Shown piece after piece: positions 4,790 to 15,266 of a stretch of 64,000 nucleotides of DNA. The position numbers were made by a program, and so were the translations under genes. This DNA comes from Dictyostelium discoideum. Lineage: Eukaryota. The notes under the pieces are model-generated. The model searched no databases. It was not told the DNA's origin and saw only the letters and a program-made list of their open reading frames with translations. Numbering within the stretch: the first letter of the stretch is position 1; the number at the start of each line of letters is the position of its first letter. The stretch covers positions 768,001 to 832,000 of the forward strand of contig CM000153.2 in the NCBI GenBank assembly GCA_000004695.1. Direction: 5' to 3'.

Positions 4790-6369
4790 TTAAATTAAAA
4801 ATTGTATAAAGAATAAAAAAGTAATAAAATAAAAAGAAGAGAAATATATTATCGATGAGGAAGAAGGTTCACCACTTTCATCAGAATCAGAGCTACTATT
4901 ATTATTGATACTATCATTATAAGTATATGTGAAAACTTGTTTAAATTGGAAATTACTGCCGAAATAAGCAACAAAAGTTTTATTTGCACCAGTACCTTTT
5001 GGAATTGATAATTCAATTTGTCTATTTGGTATAGTTATAGTAATAGTTGGTATTGATAATTCTGAATCTGAATTTGAGTTTGAATCATTTGATGATGATT
5101 TATAATACCAACCGAAATCAGTACCACTAATAGTTATAATTGAAGAACCATCAATTTTAACGATTTTATTATAACTTGTATCAAATGAAAAAGTTGGACA
5201 GTTGGTAGCAACAGAATTTGAATTGAAATCTGTGAAATTGTTTGGTAACAAATATTTAGTACCAATTGAATTTGCACCACTACAACTGAAACAACTTGGA
5301 ATTGAGCCGGACAATAAATTACCACCGACTCCTAATACACCATCCCTAAATTGGCAGTAACTCGATGGTAATGATCCAACTAAATTATTCTTTCTTTCAA
5401 CATTAAAACTATCCATTTTTACATAATCAATACCAGATTCACTTGACCATGGTAACTCTTGTTCCAAATCATTATTAACCATTGTAAATTCTAAAATATT
5501 CTTAAATGATAAATTATTTAAATTTACATTACAATTTGATAAACTTAATTTTGAATCAATTGGTAAATTTAAACATGGTTTTTTATTACACATTGTTAAA
5601 AAATCACAACCTTCTTCAAAATTACTTTTTTTTTTTAAAAAAAAAATAAATAATAAAATAAAATAAATAATAAAAGATTAGAATATATTTTTTTTTTTTT
5701 CATCCCCCATTCTCTGGGGTTTTAAAGGCATCGAATGTAGGTATGTGAAAAATATGGGGGTGTTTTTTTTTTTTTTTTTTTTTTTTAAAAAATACTTACA
5801 AAATTGAAGATGAATTTAATAATGAAAAATCAGTTAAACCAATTGAAGGATCTAATGTAAAACCTTTACCATAAATATTTAAATTTGATAAAGTTTTAAT
5901 TTGAGTAATTGATTGTAAGAAATTCCAAGTTTGGATATTACTACCAGTTGAATCAATTGGTGAATTTATAAATGTTATTGAAATTATTGATAATTTTTCA
6001 AATGGTGTTTGAAAATTTGGTAATTGAAAATCTTTATAATTTTCATTTGAGTTACGATCATTAAAAATATTTAAATTTAATTCAATTAATGCTTTTAAAT
6101 TATTTAAATCATTTGGAAATGATGATTGAATATATGATATTGGTAAAGACAATGATTTTAAATAATTATTCACTGGAAATGATGATGGTAATGAACTACC
6201 ATTATCAAAATTTATAATTACTAAATTTGAAATTTGACCACTTGAAAAGAAGTTTTCATTAATTCTAGTTGAAATAGTACCAAATTCAACACTATCTAAT
6301 GAATTTGGTAAATTTTGGTCACTTGGTATTGTTTCAATTTGATTTGAAATAACTCTAAAAAATAAAAAA

Positions 6370-6411
<42 letters not shown>

Positions 6412-6855
6412 GATTTATTAATATTTTCACACTTTTCGATCTTTTTTTTCGTTTTTTTTTTTTTTTTTTTCATTATTTTTAAAATTTTTTACATACAATT
6501 TTTTTAAATATTGGTAATTTGAAATATTATTAAAAAATGTTAATGATGATAAACCATTAGTTAATTCTAAAGTTGTTAAATTTATAAATGAAGTGAATGG
6601 TGAATTTATTACCATATTTGGTGGTGATGATGATGGAAATACAATTTCAGTAATTGTATAAACATTTGATGCCGAAACACCATCATTTATAGGTGCACAT
6701 TTAAATGATCCATATGAACAAATGTCATCAATTTTCGTTCCAAAAATTTCAACCATCATTGTATCAATTGCATCTTGTTGATCATTTGGTAAAGTATTTT
6801 GTGCATTATTAAAATAAACTAAATAAAAAATAAAAAATAAAAATATTATTTTCAT
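4790..6855 (-). CDS. Secreted or GPI-anchored leucine-rich-repeat-like cell-surface protein. Three exons: 6855..6497, 6354..5800, 5624..4790.
   Basis: N-terminal signal peptide 'MKIIFLFFIFYLVYFNNAQN'. Repeated L/N/S-rich ~24-aa segments ('LTNGLSSLTFFNNISN', 'LNNLKALIELNLNIF', 'IKTLSNLNIYGKGF'). Cys-containing middle ('SIPSCFSCSGANSIG'). Ser-rich stalk and hydrophobic C-terminus 'FSSFYFITFLFFIQFLI' (GPI-signal-like). Splice junctions (GTATGT, GTAAGT) give consistent phases 2 and 2. The exact acceptor of exon 3 is chosen only by frame. Confidence 0.6.
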
Positions 6856-7610
6856 TTTTATTTTATTTTATTTTCTTTTATATATAGATAATATATATAT
6901 ATATATATATACAAATATATTTATTTAAGTTTATAAAAATAAAAACAAAAAAAAAAAAAATAAAAAAAAAAAAAAAAAAAAACAAATTACTGTAAAAAAA
7001 AAAAAAAAATAAAAAAAAAAAATAAATAAAAATAAAAAAATAAAAATAATTTTTTGATTTACACTAAAATTCAATCAATTCAAATAAAAAGCATTTCAGT
7101 TATTATAGATTTGACCAAATTTATTTAGAAAAAGAGAAAAAAAAAAAAAAAAAAATTGTAATAGGTAATGGATTGCTTTATTATAAAATTTTTTTTTTTT
7201 TTCGTGTGACTATTGGAAAATATCTTTTATCGACTGGAATCAAAAAAAAAATCAAAAAAAAAAATAATAAAATTAAATTCAAAAAAAAATTTTCATAAAA
7301 AAAAAAAAAAAAAATTGTTTCCAATAATGTTTTCAATTTTTGTTTTCACAATCTTGATATTATTAAGACGAGAGGTTTGGCGAGAGTTAATTTTCCCCAA
7401 CCAATCAATCAACCAACCAATCAATCAACCAATCAATCAAAAAAAAAAAAAAATAATAAAAAAAAAAATAAAAAAAAAATAAAAAAATAAAAATGAACAG
7501 AAAGTGTCGTCTGGAAAATTAAAATGTGAGAAATTATAATTTTAGTTATTTTTTATTTACAGAGGTTATATTCTTTTTTTTTTTTTTTTTGGTTTGTATA
7601 TATTTTTTTT

Positions 7611-7652
<42 letters not shown>

Positions 7653-7936
7653 CTTTGGGTTATTATTATTTTAAAATTATTTCTATTTACAATGACATGT
7701 ATGTAAAAGTTTGTTTATTTAATGCATTCTTATACCAATGTAATTGAAAAAACATAAACTATGTAAACTACTACTATTACTATTACTACTGCTCTTTTTT
7801 TTTTTTTTTTTTAAAAATTTTTTTTTTTAATGTTTTTTTTTTTTTCAAAAAAGTAATACTTTTTTTTTTAAGAAAAATATTACACTAAATGGATATATTA
7901 ATTTTTTTTTTTTTTTTTGTATATTATATTATTATT

Positions 7937-8430
7937 TTAATGAATCAATTCCAATTTTCTTTTCTTCAAAAATAAATCATCATTTAGATTTGAAGATGAA
8001 GAAGTTGGACTTGTTAAAGTTGAGGAAGAATTACTATTACTATTACTATTATATAAACTGATTGGAGGTAATAAAATACTTCTTGAACTATTATTTTGAT
8101 TATTATTATTCGTGTTCGTATTATTGCTATTATTATTATTATTATTTTGGTTATTATTTTGATTATTATTATTTTGATTATTATTTTCATTAAAAATGAG
8201 AGGTGGTAAAGATTTTGATTTTTGTTGGCTATTTGGTGATGTTTGTAAAGTATTTGTATTGGTTGATGAAAATGGTGGAGTTCTTGGTGATGTCATTGGT
8301 GAGGTATCTTCTGGTGATGAGCAAAATAATTTTGAAGCATTATGTAAAGAGAGTAAAGCTTGTGTTGCTTGAGTCGAATCAAATGCTGGTACTTGTTGAC
8401 ATTTGCTTGGTGGTGATCCAATTGGAGACA

Positions 8431-8506
<76 letters not shown>

Positions 8507-9057
8507 TGTATTATTATTGTTTGTATTATTATTATTATTATTATTGTTGTTGTTGTTGCTATTATTATTATTATTGCTACTGTTATTATTATTATTATTA
8601 TTAGATAAATGTGAACTATAATTATTATAATGATTATGATTTTCTTGAGTTTGGGATGGTTTTATTGATAAAATTGGTTTATTTATATGTTGACTGCTAT
8701 TAAATTGAGAATTATTATTATTATTATTACTATTTAATTTCAAATTATTGTGATTATAATGATTATTGTGTCCATTTATATTATTACTGTTATTATAGTT
8801 ATTATGGTTATTATTATGATTATTATTATTATTATTACTATTATTATTATATTGATGGTGGTGATGATGATGATTATGGTGATTGTATCCTAATAATTCT
8901 GGTGTCGATGATGGTGATTTATGATCCTCTTCTTCAGAGTGTGATGCTGTATCGCCACCAATATAGTCATCATTAAAGTCACCTTTTTCTTTTTTATTAA
9001 ATATTTTATCATACTATATGGAAAATTAAAAGTTAATTAGTATTCCAAATTATTTTT

Positions 9058-9104
<47 letters not shown>

Positions 9105-9399
9105 TTTTTTTTTAGATTTTTTTTTTTTTACATACGTCATGGTCAGTAAACTTTTGGGAAATTTCTGGACCCAAATCTGGAATTGATTCCATTGGTGATG
9201 GTAAACCAGAACTAATATATTGGAAATATTTCTCTTTGGCATTTGGTGAATTATTTACAATGACAAGAGAAACTGTAGAGTCACAGAGTAATGCCAATTC
9301 CATTGCCTTTTTAATTAAGCCATTCTTTCTTTTGTTGAATGTAACTTGACGATTTCTTTCGTCTGGAATTCTTTGGATCTTAATTTTCTTTCTACCCAT
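7937..9399 (-). CDS. MADS-box transcription factor, MEF2-type. Two exons: 9399..9136 and 9013..7937.
   Basis: N-terminus '[40 protein letters not shown]' is a canonical MEF2-class MADS box. Exon 1 ends at a GTATGT donor after '...FTDHD'. Exon 2 starts after a '..atatag' acceptor and encodes a long poly-N/Q/H activation-like region. The frame is continuous into ORF 7937..8743. Confidence 0.8.
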
Positions 9400-9592
9400 T
9401 TTAATTTATTAATTGTTTTGATTATTTGGTTGATTGATTTGATTTGATTGATATATGGAAAAAAAGTGTGAATAAATAAATAAAATATTATTTCACTATT
9501 ATTATTATTTGTAGATGATTAGTAAATTTTTTATTTAAATTATATATAAAATAAATGAATAAATAAAAAATTAAAAAATTAAAAAAAAACCC

Positions 9593-9623
<31 letters not shown>

Positions 9624-9712
9624 AGTTAAAATTAAAATTAAAATTAAAAAAAACAATTTTTTAAAAGTTTTAATTAAAAAAATTTAAAAAAAAATTTTTT
9701 TTTTAAAATGGG

Positions 9713-9745
<33 letters not shown>

Positions 9746-10732
9746 TGAAGTGGCAAAGGAAAAAAAAATGAAAAAAAAATGAAAAAAAAAATAAAAAAAA
9801 TAAAAAAAAAGATAAATTTGGAAATCAGACAAGATTGTAAATAAAGAGGATGTGTGGTGTGTGTGTGTGTTTGTGTTTTTAAAGGGAGGCTTAATATAAT
9901 AATTACCTTTTTTTAAAATAAAGATGAAAATGAAATTTCTATAGTTGGTTCAAATGTTGTCTTTACTGGAATTAAATTAATCTACTAATTAAATATAGAT
10001 TTTACTATTATTAATTTTTTTTTTTTTTTAAAAATTTTTTTTTTTTTTTTTTTTTAAGATTTAAAATTAAAAAAAAAAAAATAAATAAAATTTTAAAGAA
10101 AAAAAAAAATAAATGTTAAATTTGTACAAAGATACTAAAAAATTTAAAAGAATTAAATATAATTAATTAATAAATAAATAATTATTTAATTGAAAAAAAA
10201 TAAAAAAAAACAAAAAAAGATAAAATTTAAAAATATATTTGTGTTTTGAAAAAAAAAAAAAAAAATAAAAAAAGAAAAAAATTTTATTTTATTTAGAAAA
10301 CAAAAATAACAAAAATAGAAAATGCCTTGAAATTAAATTTTTTTTTTTATAAAAAAAAATAAAAATAAAAAAAAAAAAAATAAAAAAAAAATAAAAAAAA
10401 TAAAAAATCCAATTTGATAAAAATCGCGACATCCTTATTATTTAGAAGGTCTACTGTTTTTTTTTTTTATGAAGATTATGTGGCCAGGAATTTTAAAAAT
10501 TGGTTTATTTTGGGAACTGTTTTGATAACATTATGATGTGCTGGTGGTGAATTTTTTTTTTATTTTTTTTTTTTTTTGTTTTGCCTGTACATTTTCTATA
10601 AATAAACCAAAAAAAAAAAAAAATAAAATAAAATAAAAAAAATAAAATTTTTAACTTAAACAGAAAAAAAATTAAAAAAAAAAAAAAAAAAGTTATGATT
10701 TATGTGTTACAATTATTTTTTGCAAAAATTTA

Positions 10733-10764
<32 letters not shown>

Positions 10765-11197
10765 GTTTATAAAAAATAATTATTGTAATTGTTATATTAT
10801 TGGAAAAAAAAAAAAATAATAAAAAAAATAAAAATATAAAAACCAAAAAAAAAAAAAAAAAAATAAAAATCCAATTTTTTTAAAAAAGCAACGTTGGGGA
10901 TAATTTTAAATAAGGTTGTAACAAAAATATTTAGAGTCTTTTCATCACATTTGTGGTGGGTTACAAGTGATATAAATAAACAAATAACGAAGGATTTTTT
11001 TTTTTTTAAAAAAAAAAAAAGTTATATAAATAAAAAAATATGGTTATATGTTTAAAAAAAAAAAAAAAAAAAAAAAAATTTAAAAAAAATAAAAATACTT
11101 TTTTTTTTATTTTGACTGTTTTTTGATTTTGATTTAGGGATATTTTTTGGGAAAATGTTCGGAAACAAAATTTATAAATAGTTTTTGGGTGAGAGAG

Positions 11198-11230
<33 letters not shown>

Positions 11231-11279
11231 TTAAAATAAAAAAAAATGGTTTTTAAAAAAAAAAAATTTTTTTTTAAAC

Positions 11280-11331
<52 letters not shown>

Positions 11332-14300
11332 TTAGTTTATGAAAATAAAAAATAAAAAATAAATGAAATTTAAAAAAAAAAAAAAAACCAGCAACAAATT
11401 AAATTTTCATATTAAAGTACGCTGTAGAAGATATGTTGTTAAAGGCTGTGGGCGTTCTTTTTTTTTTTTTTTTTTTTTTTTATTTTTAATCTATTTGATT
11501 ATGCACAGGGTAAAAAGGTATGAAGATTAAAAGAAAAAAAAAAAAAAAAAAAAAAATTAAAAATAAAAATAAAAACACTCAACAAAAAAAAATCCAAAAA
11601 ACACAAATTTATTTTTATACACAGAGTACTGATAAAGTTTGGAAAAAAAAAAAAAAAAAAAATATTTTTTGCCAGTAAAATTTAAAAAAAGTTGTTTTTT
11701 GATGGTGAATTAAATTGTCATATGATTGTAAGGGTTGACACCATAATTTAATATTAAAAATAGATTTGTACCAGATTTATGTGAAAATTAAAAATCAAAA
11801 ATAAAAAAAAAAATAAAAAAAAATAAAAATAAAAATTCTATAATTATTTTTTTTTTTTTTTTTTTGATATTTTGAAATGGGGAAAATGGTGCGGTAAAGG
11901 TGTGATGTTATAGTAAAATTCGAGAGTGTGTTCTTATTTTTTTTTATTTTTTTTTTTTTTTGTATAACGACAAGTATAAAGGTTACAACAAAAATTTAAA
12001 AATAATTTTTTTTTTTGAAAATTTAAAAATAAATTATTTTTTTTAATGAAAAATGGCGAATCAATTTCGCAACATTGCGAACTGTTGGGACACCCAAAAA
12101 TTACTCTTTTTTTTTATTTTTTTTTTTTTATTTTTTATAAATATAGAAATTATGGTATTATCTTTTTTTTTTTTTTTTATTTCTTCTTACCTCTTTTTTT
12201 TATTTTTTTATTTTTTTTTTTAAAAAAAATTAATTTATTGAGTAAAATATTTTTTTTATTTTTTTTTTTATTATTGGAATATTTTGGCTTTTATAAAAAT
12301 TATTTTTAAAATAAATTTTTTTTTTTTTTTTTTTAAATTTAACAAAATAATAAAATTAAAATATATATTTTAATAAATTTTTTAATTTTATTTATTTAAA
12401 AAAGTAATTTTTTTTTCTTTTTGGGTTATTAAATAAAAAAATAAAATAAAAATTTTTTATTTATATATATATTTATATATATAAGTATAAATATAAATAA
12501 GTTTTTTTAATTTTTTTTTAATTTTTTTTATTAATTAAATTTAAAATATTTTTGTTTTATATAATTATTATTTAGTTCGAATATTGACAATAATAAATAA
12601 CACGAAGATTCGATTAGAGATATAATTGTGTAGTGAGTTTGTATGGGTTGAAATTTTATTGCTTGGAATTTGAAAAAGAACAATTAAAACACATAATGGT
12701 GCAATTATTATTATTTTTTCATTTTATTGAAAAAAAAAAATAAAAAAAAAAAACAATGTGAATAAATAATAAAAGTGTTTTTAAAATAGATTATTATATT
12801 TTTTTTTTTTTTTTATAAAATTTTAAAATATGATAAAAAAAATAAAATCATCATTTCTATTGTTATTTATTTTTTTTTTTTAAAAAAAAAATAGATTAAA
12901 AGGGGTGTGGGAATTGGGGTTTATTTATTTTTTTTTATTTTTTTTATTTTTATAATTATTATTATTTTTAAAAAATGTGGTTTTCCATTGTAATAATTAC
13001 TATTTTTTAAAAATAATGTAATGATAGCGATAAAATAAATAAAAAAATAAATAAATAGATTAAAAATAATAAAAATAAAACTAATAAATAATTTTTAAAA
13101 TTTTTTTTTAAAAAAAATAAAATAAAATAAAATAACTTGAATATGAAAAAACAATAAAAATAAAAATAATACTAATACTAATATTAATTAATTTTCCAAG
13201 GACGAATTAATTAAAAAAACAAAAAAAAAAAAAGTGTTGTTTTTTTTATATTACCTTTTTTTTTTAATATTTTTATTAAAATAAATTATTAAATCTATTT
13301 ATAAAAATATTTGTATTGGTTACTAGCAATGAGATTTGATTAAATATTAATTTCGATTTTTTAATTTTATTATAATTAAATTTATTTATTAATTTATTAT
13401 TATTATTATTATTATTATTCAAAAATGAAATATAATTTTTTAAAAAAAAAAAAAAAAAAATTAAAAGTTTATTTTTTTTTTTTTTTAATTAATGATTTTA
13501 TTTTTAAATTTTTTAAATTTTTTATTTTTTTTAAAATTAGATTTATTTATATTTTTAATAATTAAAAAAAAAAAAAAAAAAGAAGATGGTATTTGTTCTT
13601 TTTTTTTTTTTATTGAAAAAGAGAAAAAAAAAAAAAACAAAAATTTAAATTTATACGGATTTAAAAATAATATTTTAATAAAAAAAAAAAAAAAATTTAT
13701 TTTTATTTTTAATTATTGTGTTATTATGATGAATCTAGGTGTTTTGATGATTGCTCTAAAAAAAAAAAAAAAAAAATATTTATTTATTTTTTATTTTTTT
13801 TTATTTTTTTTTTTGTAACTTTTGATTTTGGAGAGAGAGTCTTTTAAGTTAGAGCGGTGTTATACTGTCATTTGTTGATAGGGGACCTCGCGAAACCTTC
13901 TAAAAAAAAAAAAATTGTTGTGAGTATTGTTTTTGTCACCCAATAGATTAAATGATCCATAATGGGAATTGATAATGAATGATGTTGTGTGAGCTTGTCA
14001 AAAATAAAATTATTTTAATTTATAAAAATAAAAATAAAAATAAAAAAAAAATACTTTTCGAACGAATGTTGTCATTTTTCGAATTTAAATAAAAATTATG
14101 CCAATAATTTTTAAAAAGGAAATTAGGTTTTCCTTTTTTAGACTCTTGATTTTTTATTTTATTTTTATTTATTTTTTTTTACCCATTACATTATACCAAA
14201 ATTTCTTTTTGATGATATCATTTTTTTTTAAATTTATTTATTAAATTAATTTTATTTAATATTATTTTAAATTTTTTTTTTTTATTTTTTTTTTTTCAAA

Positions 14301-14510
14301 CTCAATTACTTAATCATTCAATTTAATTATAATGATTTTTGGAATCCAATTCCTTTAATAGGTATCAATTATTATTAAATTAACCAACAAAATAATATAA
14401 AATTAAATTAAAAAAGGTACTAGAACCACAATTCTTTTTTTTTTTTTATTTTCATTTTTTTTTTTTATTTTGGGACATGTTAAAATAAAATAAAAAAAAA
14501 TTTGAAAAAA

Positions 14511-14541
<31 letters not shown>

Positions 14542-15152
14542 CCGTTAGGGGAATGTTCTTGATGTCTTTTTAGCGTTATAATTATTTAAAAAATAAATAA
14601 TTTAAAATAAAAAAAAAAATAAAAAAAAAAATAAAAAAAATAAAATATCATCTATTTAAATATAATTCCGCAAAAATTACATTACACGATCTATAGATTG
14701 TTTTTTTAAATTTTTGTACAACCATAATCATAATGTCTATTTTTATATAGAATTGAAGTAAAAATGATGATTTTTTTTTTTTTTTTTTTGTTAATTCTTT
14801 AATCAGTTTTTTTTATTATTAGAATTTAATTTAAAAGTATTAATATTTTTTTTTTTCTTTATTATTATTGATTTTTTCTAATATTTTTATTTTTACCTTT
14901 TTTATAATGATTTTTGATTTTTCTATTATTGTTGTTATTTTTTTTTTTTTAATTATTTTTAAAAATAAAAATAGGATTTCTTAAAAAAATAATCTTTTTT
15001 TTTTTTTTTTTGCATTTTTTCCTCTTATTTTAATTAATTTCATTTTCATTTTATTAAAAAAAATTAATAATTTTATTTTTATTATTTTATTATTATTTTA
15101 TTTTTATTTATAATTTTTTTTTTGCATTTTTTCCTCTTATTTTAATTAATTT

Positions 15153-15196
<44 letters not shown>

Positions 15197-15266
15197 GCAT
15201 TTATGAAAAAAAAAAGCGACCCATACAAAAATACACATACACACACAATAAAATAAATATATAAAT
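9400..15266. other. ~5.9 kb ORF-free, extremely AT-rich intergenic region upstream of the MADS-box gene, with short islands of normal base composition
   Basis: No credible ORF. Islands of non-AT-rich sequence lie at about 10421-10540, 10875-10985, 11398-11530, 11690-11780, 11870-11935, 12040-12110, 12575-12720 and 13820-13990. They are candidate non-coding leader exons, alternative promoters or small RNA genes. Confidence 0.4.

Follow-up and report, generated by a model that had tools for sequence, protein, structure and literature searches.

A long divergent intergenic region upstream of the Dictyostelium MADS-box gene srfD as a putative modular cis-regulatory domain with weak long non-coding RNAs and a recurrent TCGCGA palindrome

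Alternative promoters are known from three MADS-box genes of Dictyostelium, namely srfA, srfB and mef2A, the last of which also has an intron in its 5' untranslated region (5'-UTR) (PMC3640940). Non-coding transcription in this organism was catalogued by Rosengarten et al. 2017, who derived 621 intergenic long non-coding RNA (lncRNA) models from developmental, strand-specific RNA sequencing of samples depleted of ribosomal RNA, demanding a length of at least 200 nt, a wholly intergenic position, no tiling path to neighbouring genes, strand-specific reads and an open reading frame (ORF) of less than 150 bp; expression of these lncRNAs is very low, their maximum having a median of 1 read per kilobase per million (RPKM) (PMC5295588). 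Here we describe the region upstream of a further MADS-box gene, srfD, in a 64-kb stretch of D. discoideum DNA (the window), whose content of G and C (GC) is 22%. To our knowledge, the four MADS-box genes of Dictyostelium have all been the subject of a functional or promoter study except srfD, which is one of the few transcription factors with prestalk/stalk specificity in every species tested. GBF binds promoters of post-aggregative Dictyostelium genes that carry a G-box or C/A-rich element (CAE). For the gap upstream of srfD we favour, with moderate confidence, an interpretation as an unusually large modular cis-regulatory domain, mainly that of srfD, from which by-product or regulatory lncRNAs would arise.

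Rosengarten et al. place DDB_G0283483 at chr4:775937-777399 (minus strand) and DDB_G0283591 at chr4:783267-784202 (plus strand) (PMC5295588 File S6). The coordinates of both genes match exactly at an offset of 768000, and therefore the window corresponds to AX4 chr4:768001-832000 and the gap to the divergent intergenic region of srfD and DDB_G0283591. The MADS-box gene of the window, with a coding sequence spanning 7937-9399 on the minus strand (chr4:775937-777399), is srfD (DDB_G0283483), which Forbes et al. list under this identifier, with expression specific to prestalk and stalk cells in most species (PMC6873476). A previous sequence-only reading of this DNA had taken the gene for a MEF2-type MADS gene, and its product matches the Pfam domain SRF-TF (PF00319, 1.3e-18). 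The N-terminus of the spliced product is near-identical in dictyostelid orthologues. An exact look-up of the exon 1 ORF gave no recorded match, and a literature search by the identifier DDB_G0283483 turned up no paper mentioning it. Identity with mef2A was considered and rejected, as the N-terminus of mef2A reads MGRNKITIEK and none of the published mef2A primers occurs in the window (PMC3640940). The upstream neighbour of mef2A ends at -2201, unlike that of the gene described here (PMC3640940).

The gap is bounded by the srfD start codon at 9399 (minus strand) and the ATG of DDB_G0283591 at 15267 (plus strand). With 5,867 bp it is as long as the sequence-only reading had estimated (about 5.9 kb) and represents the largest ORF-free gap of the window, approximately eight times the median of 679 bp (21 gaps, each 300 bp or longer); the second largest measures 2,354 bp, and D. 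discoideum intergenic DNA has a mean length of about 700 bp (PMC5295588). No credible ORF was found in 9400-15266, where the longest stop-to-stop frames comprise at most 109 codons and encode F/K/I/N low-complexity sequence, and a repeat search of the region detected low-complexity families only, with no transposon or pseudogene remnant. The developmental MADS-box gene srfD resembles srfA, srfB and mef2A in its long and complex 5' region, and there is precedent among these genes for several cell-type-specific promoters (PMC3640940). Unlike the promoter region of mef2A, which extends over 2.2 kb and has start sites at -144 and -814, the 5.9-kb gap of srfD is without a mapped start.

Orthologues were retrieved with the full spliced srfD protein from P. 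violaceum, T. lacteum, H. album and A. subglobosum (two paralogues), and loci of approximately 21 kb each were fetched, resulting in six loci including that of D. discoideum. A protein search with exon 1 alone returned short fragments only and no dictyostelids. The first 20 residues of the orthologues carry at most 3 substitutions and are identical in P. violaceum. The upstream gap measures 4.6 kb in P. violaceum, 2.8 kb in T. lacteum, 7.5 kb in H. album, where it includes a gene model of 48 amino acids, and 2.4 and 3.0 kb in A. subglobosum. At all six loci (approximately 21 kb for the orthologues) the gap upstream of srfD is the largest of its locus, which implies that the long 5' region is a conserved property of srfD.

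The hexamer TCGCGA occurs twice in the region compared to 0.03 copies expected, and these are also the only copies in the whole 64 kb, where 0.28 are expected. Even the CGCG tetramer is found in the window only within these two copies, one in each of the two best islands of ordinary GC content picked out by the sequence-only reading (islands A and B, Table 1). Both copies share a layout of TGATA(A/G), 4 or 7 nt, TCGCGA, ACCTTCTA or its complement within about 15 nt, and a homopolymer of 12-13 nt. In the four AT-rich loci (127 kb) the regions upstream of srfD account for 16% of the sequence and hold all five TCGCGA copies: two in D. discoideum, one in 21 kb of P. violaceum and two in H. album. 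The A. subglobosum loci, fetched later as a test, include one upstream copy each versus 0.06 and 0.08 expected. Altogether, TCGCGA is present upstream of srfD at five of the six loci, with 7 copies compared to 0.32 expected. In A. subglobosum srfD is duplicated, and both copies of the gene have a long upstream gap with one TCGCGA.

When all 2,080 canonical hexamers were screened without bias across the six upstream regions, TCGCGA ranked first (log10P -6.3). It also ranked first among the 102 hexamers of the same composition, despite being a palindrome with two CpGs. In 150 control sets taken from unrelated windows of the same loci the best hexamer scored -3.16 +/- 0.40 with a minimum of -4.55, and the heptamer TCGCGAA reached -6.8 versus -4.53 +/- 0.33 in the controls. 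A literature search for TCGCGA in Dictyostelium papers returned primer sequences only. E2F/DP-type sites have a CGCG core and the consensus TTTSSCGC. TCGCGAA and TTTCGCGA resemble these sites in their central CGCG and A/T flank, but no TCGCGA copy fits the full consensus; E2F control of srfD is a lead only, and an E2F/DP-like CGCG reader of TCGCGA is only a guess.

G and C are clustered in the region approximately 5-fold above dinucleotide shuffles, and 13% of its 60-bp windows reach the threshold of 25% GC compared to 2.5% +/- 1.0% in such shuffles. Applying a threshold of at least 25% GC in 60-bp windows, about 14 islands were delimited. G/T-rich pentamers are 5.8-fold overrepresented (22 versus 3.8 +/- 2.1 in shuffles), and the CA-rich octamers CACACCAC/CACCACAC occur upstream at five of the six loci, 375-750 nt from the ATG at four of them. 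The G/T-rich runs GGATGTGTGGTGTGTGTGTG and GGGGTGTGGG within the gap and the position of the CA-rich element are reminiscent of GBF/CAE promoters; however, the recurrence across species exceeds the controls only marginally, and CA/GT repeats are also simple sequence. The motif CATTGCGA is likewise found upstream in P. violaceum and T. lacteum, where it is not significant versus the controls. As expected of a cis-regulatory module, the region thus shows motif clustering beyond chance and conservation of an element at orthologous loci.

We infer that the islands bind transcription factors and drive srfD. In the proposed organisation long poly(dA:dT)-rich spacers set apart short islands of complex sequence, which would represent clusters of transcription factor sites and core-promoter elements and not exons or small-RNA genes. 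Two of these islands present TCGCGA flanked by a WGATAR site and ACCTTCTA, others G/T-rich elements of the G-box/CAE type, and at least one a TATA box with a T-run behind it. Transcription of the central 2 kb proceeds at a low level, away from srfD, and gives unspliced lncRNA. There are probably one or two such transcripts, associated with a promoter or enhancer, and homopolymer tracts would determine where their models end; the right-hand end of the gap would serve the divergent neighbour DDB_G0283591. A more far-reaching proposal, which we put forward only tentatively, is that the WGATAR/TCGCGA/ACCTTCTA composites of islands A and B constitute an ancient enhancer code for prestalk and stalk expression of srfD that predates the dictyostelid groups, and that the lncRNA between them contributes to the switch, perhaps as an insulator or competitor of the srfD promoter.

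Several observations weigh against the interpretation as a cis-regulatory domain. T. lacteum has no TCGCGA upstream of srfD. The TCGCGA lead arose after viewing the sequence, and the evidence obtained after the hypothesis is limited to the unbiased screens and the test on A. subglobosum. ACCTTCTA and CATTGCGA are not above the control sets, and the CA-rich octamers are marginally above them. No long conserved blocks were found versus P. violaceum, T. lacteum and H. album, which are very distant species: blastn of the upstream regions across species gave A/T low-complexity alignments only, and an ungapped, composition-aware comparison with these three species yielded nothing clearly above reversed or complemented nulls, its best segments being CA repeats and ACCCCAATTCCCACACCCC versus H. 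album. Of the conservation in related species that the sequence-only reading had suggested as a check, distant dictyostelids showed the recurrence of TCGCGA and no extended blocks. Furthermore, the islands amount to 2.3 per kb and 27% of the bases in the gap, compared to 0-4.6 per kb and 0-58% in other ORF-free gaps. The gap is unusual in length only and its islands are no denser than in other spacers, which implies that most of them may be ordinary.

Table 1. Coordinates of genes, transcripts and candidate elements in and around the srfD upstream region (positions in the 64-kb window)
Feature	Position	Strand	Remarks
srfD exon 1	9136..9399	-	88 codons; MADS and MEF2-type domain; by translation
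srfD intron	begins 9135	-	GTATGT donor
srfD exon 2	7937-9013	-	stop at 7937; spliced product 446 residues
Divergent intergenic region srfD/DDB_G0283591	9400..15266 (chr4:777400-783266)	.	5,867 bp, GC 13.3%
G-box/CAE-like element	9848..9875	.	G/T-rich (C/A-rich on srfD sense strand); ~450-475 nt upstream of srfD ATG
Island A	10409..10596	.	first island of the sequence-only reading; TGATAA-N4-TCGCGA at 10415-10429; TAGAAGGT at 10443-10450
TCGCGA copy 1	10424..10429	.	island A; 1,030 nt upstream of srfD ATG
lncRNA CUFF_3168_1 / DDB_G3973075	11538..12173 (chr4:779538-780173)	+	single-exon, 635 nt, GC 17.3%; PMC5295588 Files S4/S6
Inverted repeat TTCGCAA-ca-TTGCGAA	12066..12081	.	perfect; island 12048-12106; 0/300 shuffles
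TATA-type box TATAAATA, then T16 run	12136..12178	+	regular-expression scan; Dictyostelium core-promoter layout
lncRNA CUFF_3169_1 / DDB_G3971723	12229..13573 (chr4:780229-781573)	+	single-exon, 1,344 nt, GC 9.4%; PMC5295588 Files S4/S6
G-box-like GGGGTGTGGGAATTGGGG	12902..12919	.	inside CUFF_3169_1; best composition-aware H. album match 17/19, barely above null
Island B	13815..13999	.	second island of the sequence-only reading; TGATAG-N7-TCGCGA at 13876-13893; ACCTTCTA at 13895-13902; CCAAT-like CACCCAATAG at 13937-13946
TCGCGA copy 2	13888..13893	.	island B; 4,494 nt upstream of srfD ATG
Island next to DDB_G0283591 ATG	15196..15246	+	upstream of ATG; by position
Probe sequence for candidate TCGCGA-reading factor			TGATAAAAATCGCGACATCC

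That part of the region gives non-coding RNA, as the sequence-only reading had supposed, is borne out by the two catalogued lncRNAs CUFF_3168_1 and CUFF_3169_1 (PMC5295588). Both are typical members of the catalogue in being single-exon transcripts of more than 200 nt without an ORF of at least 50 codons; their longest ATG ORFs encode 42 and 46 aa, respectively, of low-complexity sequence, and in strand, length and the lack of a substantial ORF they agree with the catalogue's definition of an intergenic lncRNA. CUFF_3168_1 also has the typical GC content of 17%, whereas that of CUFF_3169_1 is only 9.4%. Atypically, the two models form an adjacent pair 55 nt apart and end at homopolymers, and they are the sole models in the window, no others being catalogued on chr4 746-867 kb (PMC5295588). 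Both are transcribed from the strand opposite to srfD, in the direction away from srfD and towards DDB_G0283591.

Of the four model ends, three lie within homopolymers 16 nt or longer, namely both ends of CUFF_3168_1 and the 3' end of CUFF_3169_1 (an A18 run). The region has 31 runs of 15 nt or more, which account for an estimated 11% of its bases. This suggests that the models are probably truncated by mappability, and the two may constitute one longer unit of at least 2 kb. The TATA-type box TATAAATA with its T16 run, approximately 50 nt upstream of the CUFF_3169_1 5' end in its putative placement relative to the lncRNA start, fits plus-strand initiation. Of the 14 islands, 4 lie in the lncRNA models, which extend over 34% of the region, indicating no enrichment; among the three islands named in the sequence-only reading, 12580-12720 alone lies within a transcript model.

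The sequence-only reading had proposed that some islands represent distal alternative promoters with non-coding leader exons spliced to an acceptor ahead of the srfD ATG. Its premise that MADS-box genes have several promoters was fair, since three of the four Dictyostelium MADS genes have alternative promoters, and the srfA, srfB and mef2A precedents (PMC3640940) together with the conserved length of the upstream gap make leader exons a reasonable prior. Moreover, going upstream from the ATG on the srfD strand, an AG that could serve as acceptor is first encountered at about 98 nt, and leader exons can enter the catalogue under the label of lncRNAs. The latter is illustrated by srfA, where CUFF_2755_1 (chr3:4490102-4490565) is located 3.5 kb upstream on the same strand and shows a Spearman correlation of 0.89 (PMC5295588 File S6); given the known alternative promoters of srfA, this model is most likely a distal srfA leader exon scored as lncRNA.

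In contrast, the published models in the central 2 kb of the srfD gap are neither on the srfD strand nor co-expressed with srfD, their Spearman correlations with srfD being -0.23 (CUFF_3168_1) and +0.35 (CUFF_3169_1) (PMC5295588). Unlike at srfA, srfB and mef2A, the documented transcripts at srfD thus run the opposite way, and their strand and correlation, so different from the srfA case, are evidence that they are not srfD leaders. Of two consensus-type donors on the srfD strand, one (15240) abuts the DDB_G0283591 start and only that at 12190 is well within the region, and the approximately 60 nt preceding the ATG are CAA-/ATC-rich and G-free, which would be in keeping with an ordinary short 5'-UTR. 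In H. album a multi-exon gene encoding 48 residues is annotated over 2.8 kb (5457-8287 of the fetched locus) on the srfD strand upstream of the orthologue. This odd model would be favourable to leader exons and may represent a spliced non-coding transcript or a prediction artefact; as its translation looks like junk, we do not take it as firm evidence of a spliced leader. No transcript model has been published for the flanks (9400-11537 and 13574-15266), where weak or cell-type-restricted transcripts could have been missed. No positive sign of such exons emerged, and on balance we regard distal srfD promoters with leader exons as unlikely, though the most serious competitor of a cis-regulatory domain.

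A less probable alternative denies any function: the islands would reflect compositional noise or sequence decay, the gap would owe its length to neutral causes, and the lncRNAs would amount to transcriptional noise. The sequence-only reading was right that islands of ordinary GC content exist: the three it named have GC contents of 0.28, 0.33 and 0.24, compared to 0.22-0.34 in neighbouring exons, and the strings it quoted for two of them begin at 10431 and 13830, about 10 nt later than given. Such islands are not peculiar to this gap, and their density, equal to that in other spacers, is what noise would predict. The same applies to the lack of extended cross-species similarity, the very low level of the catalogued lncRNAs (PMC5295588) and the GC content of CUFF_3169_1, which is under the intergenic average. 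However, neutral length is difficult to reconcile with a gap that is the largest of its locus in six of six cases, and noise with a TCGCGA recurrence far beyond the control distribution, with the clustering of G and C over dinucleotide shuffles and with a strong strand bias: on the plus strand the ratio of G to C is 427:195 for 9400-14000 and flips to 66:91 for 14001-15266. This switch at about 14000 may mark the border between the control domains of the two genes or the end of plus-strand transcription.

We consider it improbable that the plus-strand transcripts belong to DDB_G0283591, either as a distal start or as an upstream non-coding unit that modulates the gene, with transcriptional interference as one conceivable mechanism. 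They lie upstream of this gene in its orientation, their probably truncated models could reach further, G exceeds C on the plus strand between 9400 and 14000, and CUFF_3168_1 is anti-correlated with DDB_G0283591 (Spearman -0.58; PMC5295588). However, the correlation of CUFF_3169_1 with the gene is only -0.08 (PMC5295588), 1.7 kb separate CUFF_3169_1 from the ATG, and the catalogue demanded that no tiling path lead to a neighbouring gene. The island next to the DDB_G0283591 ATG is, judged by its position, probably the 5'-UTR or core promoter of this gene. Just upstream of the same ATG an exact 33-nt direct repeat, TTGCATTTTTTCCTCTTATTTTAATTAATTTCA, occurs at 15010-15042 and 15122-15154, 112 nt apart, and may be a duplicated promoter element.

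Small non-coding RNAs of Dictyostelium (Class I RNAs and others) are preceded, about 60 nt before their start, by the upstream element DUSE, [AT]CCCA[CT]AA. The idea that one or more islands are DUSE-driven genes for such RNAs (Class I RNA, small nucleolar RNA or similar) is very improbable and largely refuted as far as sequence analysis reaches: the near-match to DUSE at 13937, CACCCAATAG (13937-13946), has two mismatches and not one as claimed in the sequence-only reading, the exact element is absent from 9400-15266 and present 4 times in the window versus 10.8 expected by chance, the two TGATGA strings in the island 13720-13760 are not followed by a CUGA D box, Rfam covariance models gave no match at the gathering threshold in the 64 kb and only two low-complexity chance matches (E 4-6) at E<=10 in the region, a scan for transfer and transfer-messenger RNAs found none, and folding of the three named islands on both strands was no better than that of shuffles (z -1.33 to +1.22).

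Searches for other elements in the region detected no CArG boxes CC[AT]6GG and no strict MEF2 sites CTA[AT]4TAG, and GATA sites overall, STAT-like TTGA..TCAA motifs and CCAAT boxes were not enriched. The loose MEF2-type pattern YTA[AT]4TAR is 1.7-fold more frequent than expected (36 versus 20.7 +/- 4.4). This excess could hint at MADS autoregulation; since the pattern consists of A and T only and the surrounding sequence is periodic and of the TAAA type, we left it uninterpreted. The 12-mer AAAATCCAATTT occurs at 10404-10415 and 10866-10877, in both cases at the left edge of an island, and two or more copies were obtained in 1 of 300 shuffles. In the coding sequence of srfD, exon 2 contains very long poly-Asn and His/Asn tracts (window 8200-8900), and in the C-terminus only two blocks of 33 and 12 residues are conserved, both common to P. 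violaceum.

In most respects the locus appears ordinary, a big promoter region with weak lncRNAs that were already catalogued. What the analysis yields is the identity of the srfD locus, evidence that the published transcripts are not srfD leaders, and a map of candidate control elements. The conserved CpG palindrome in a spacer of 87% A+T is a rare case of detectable non-coding conservation among dictyostelids.

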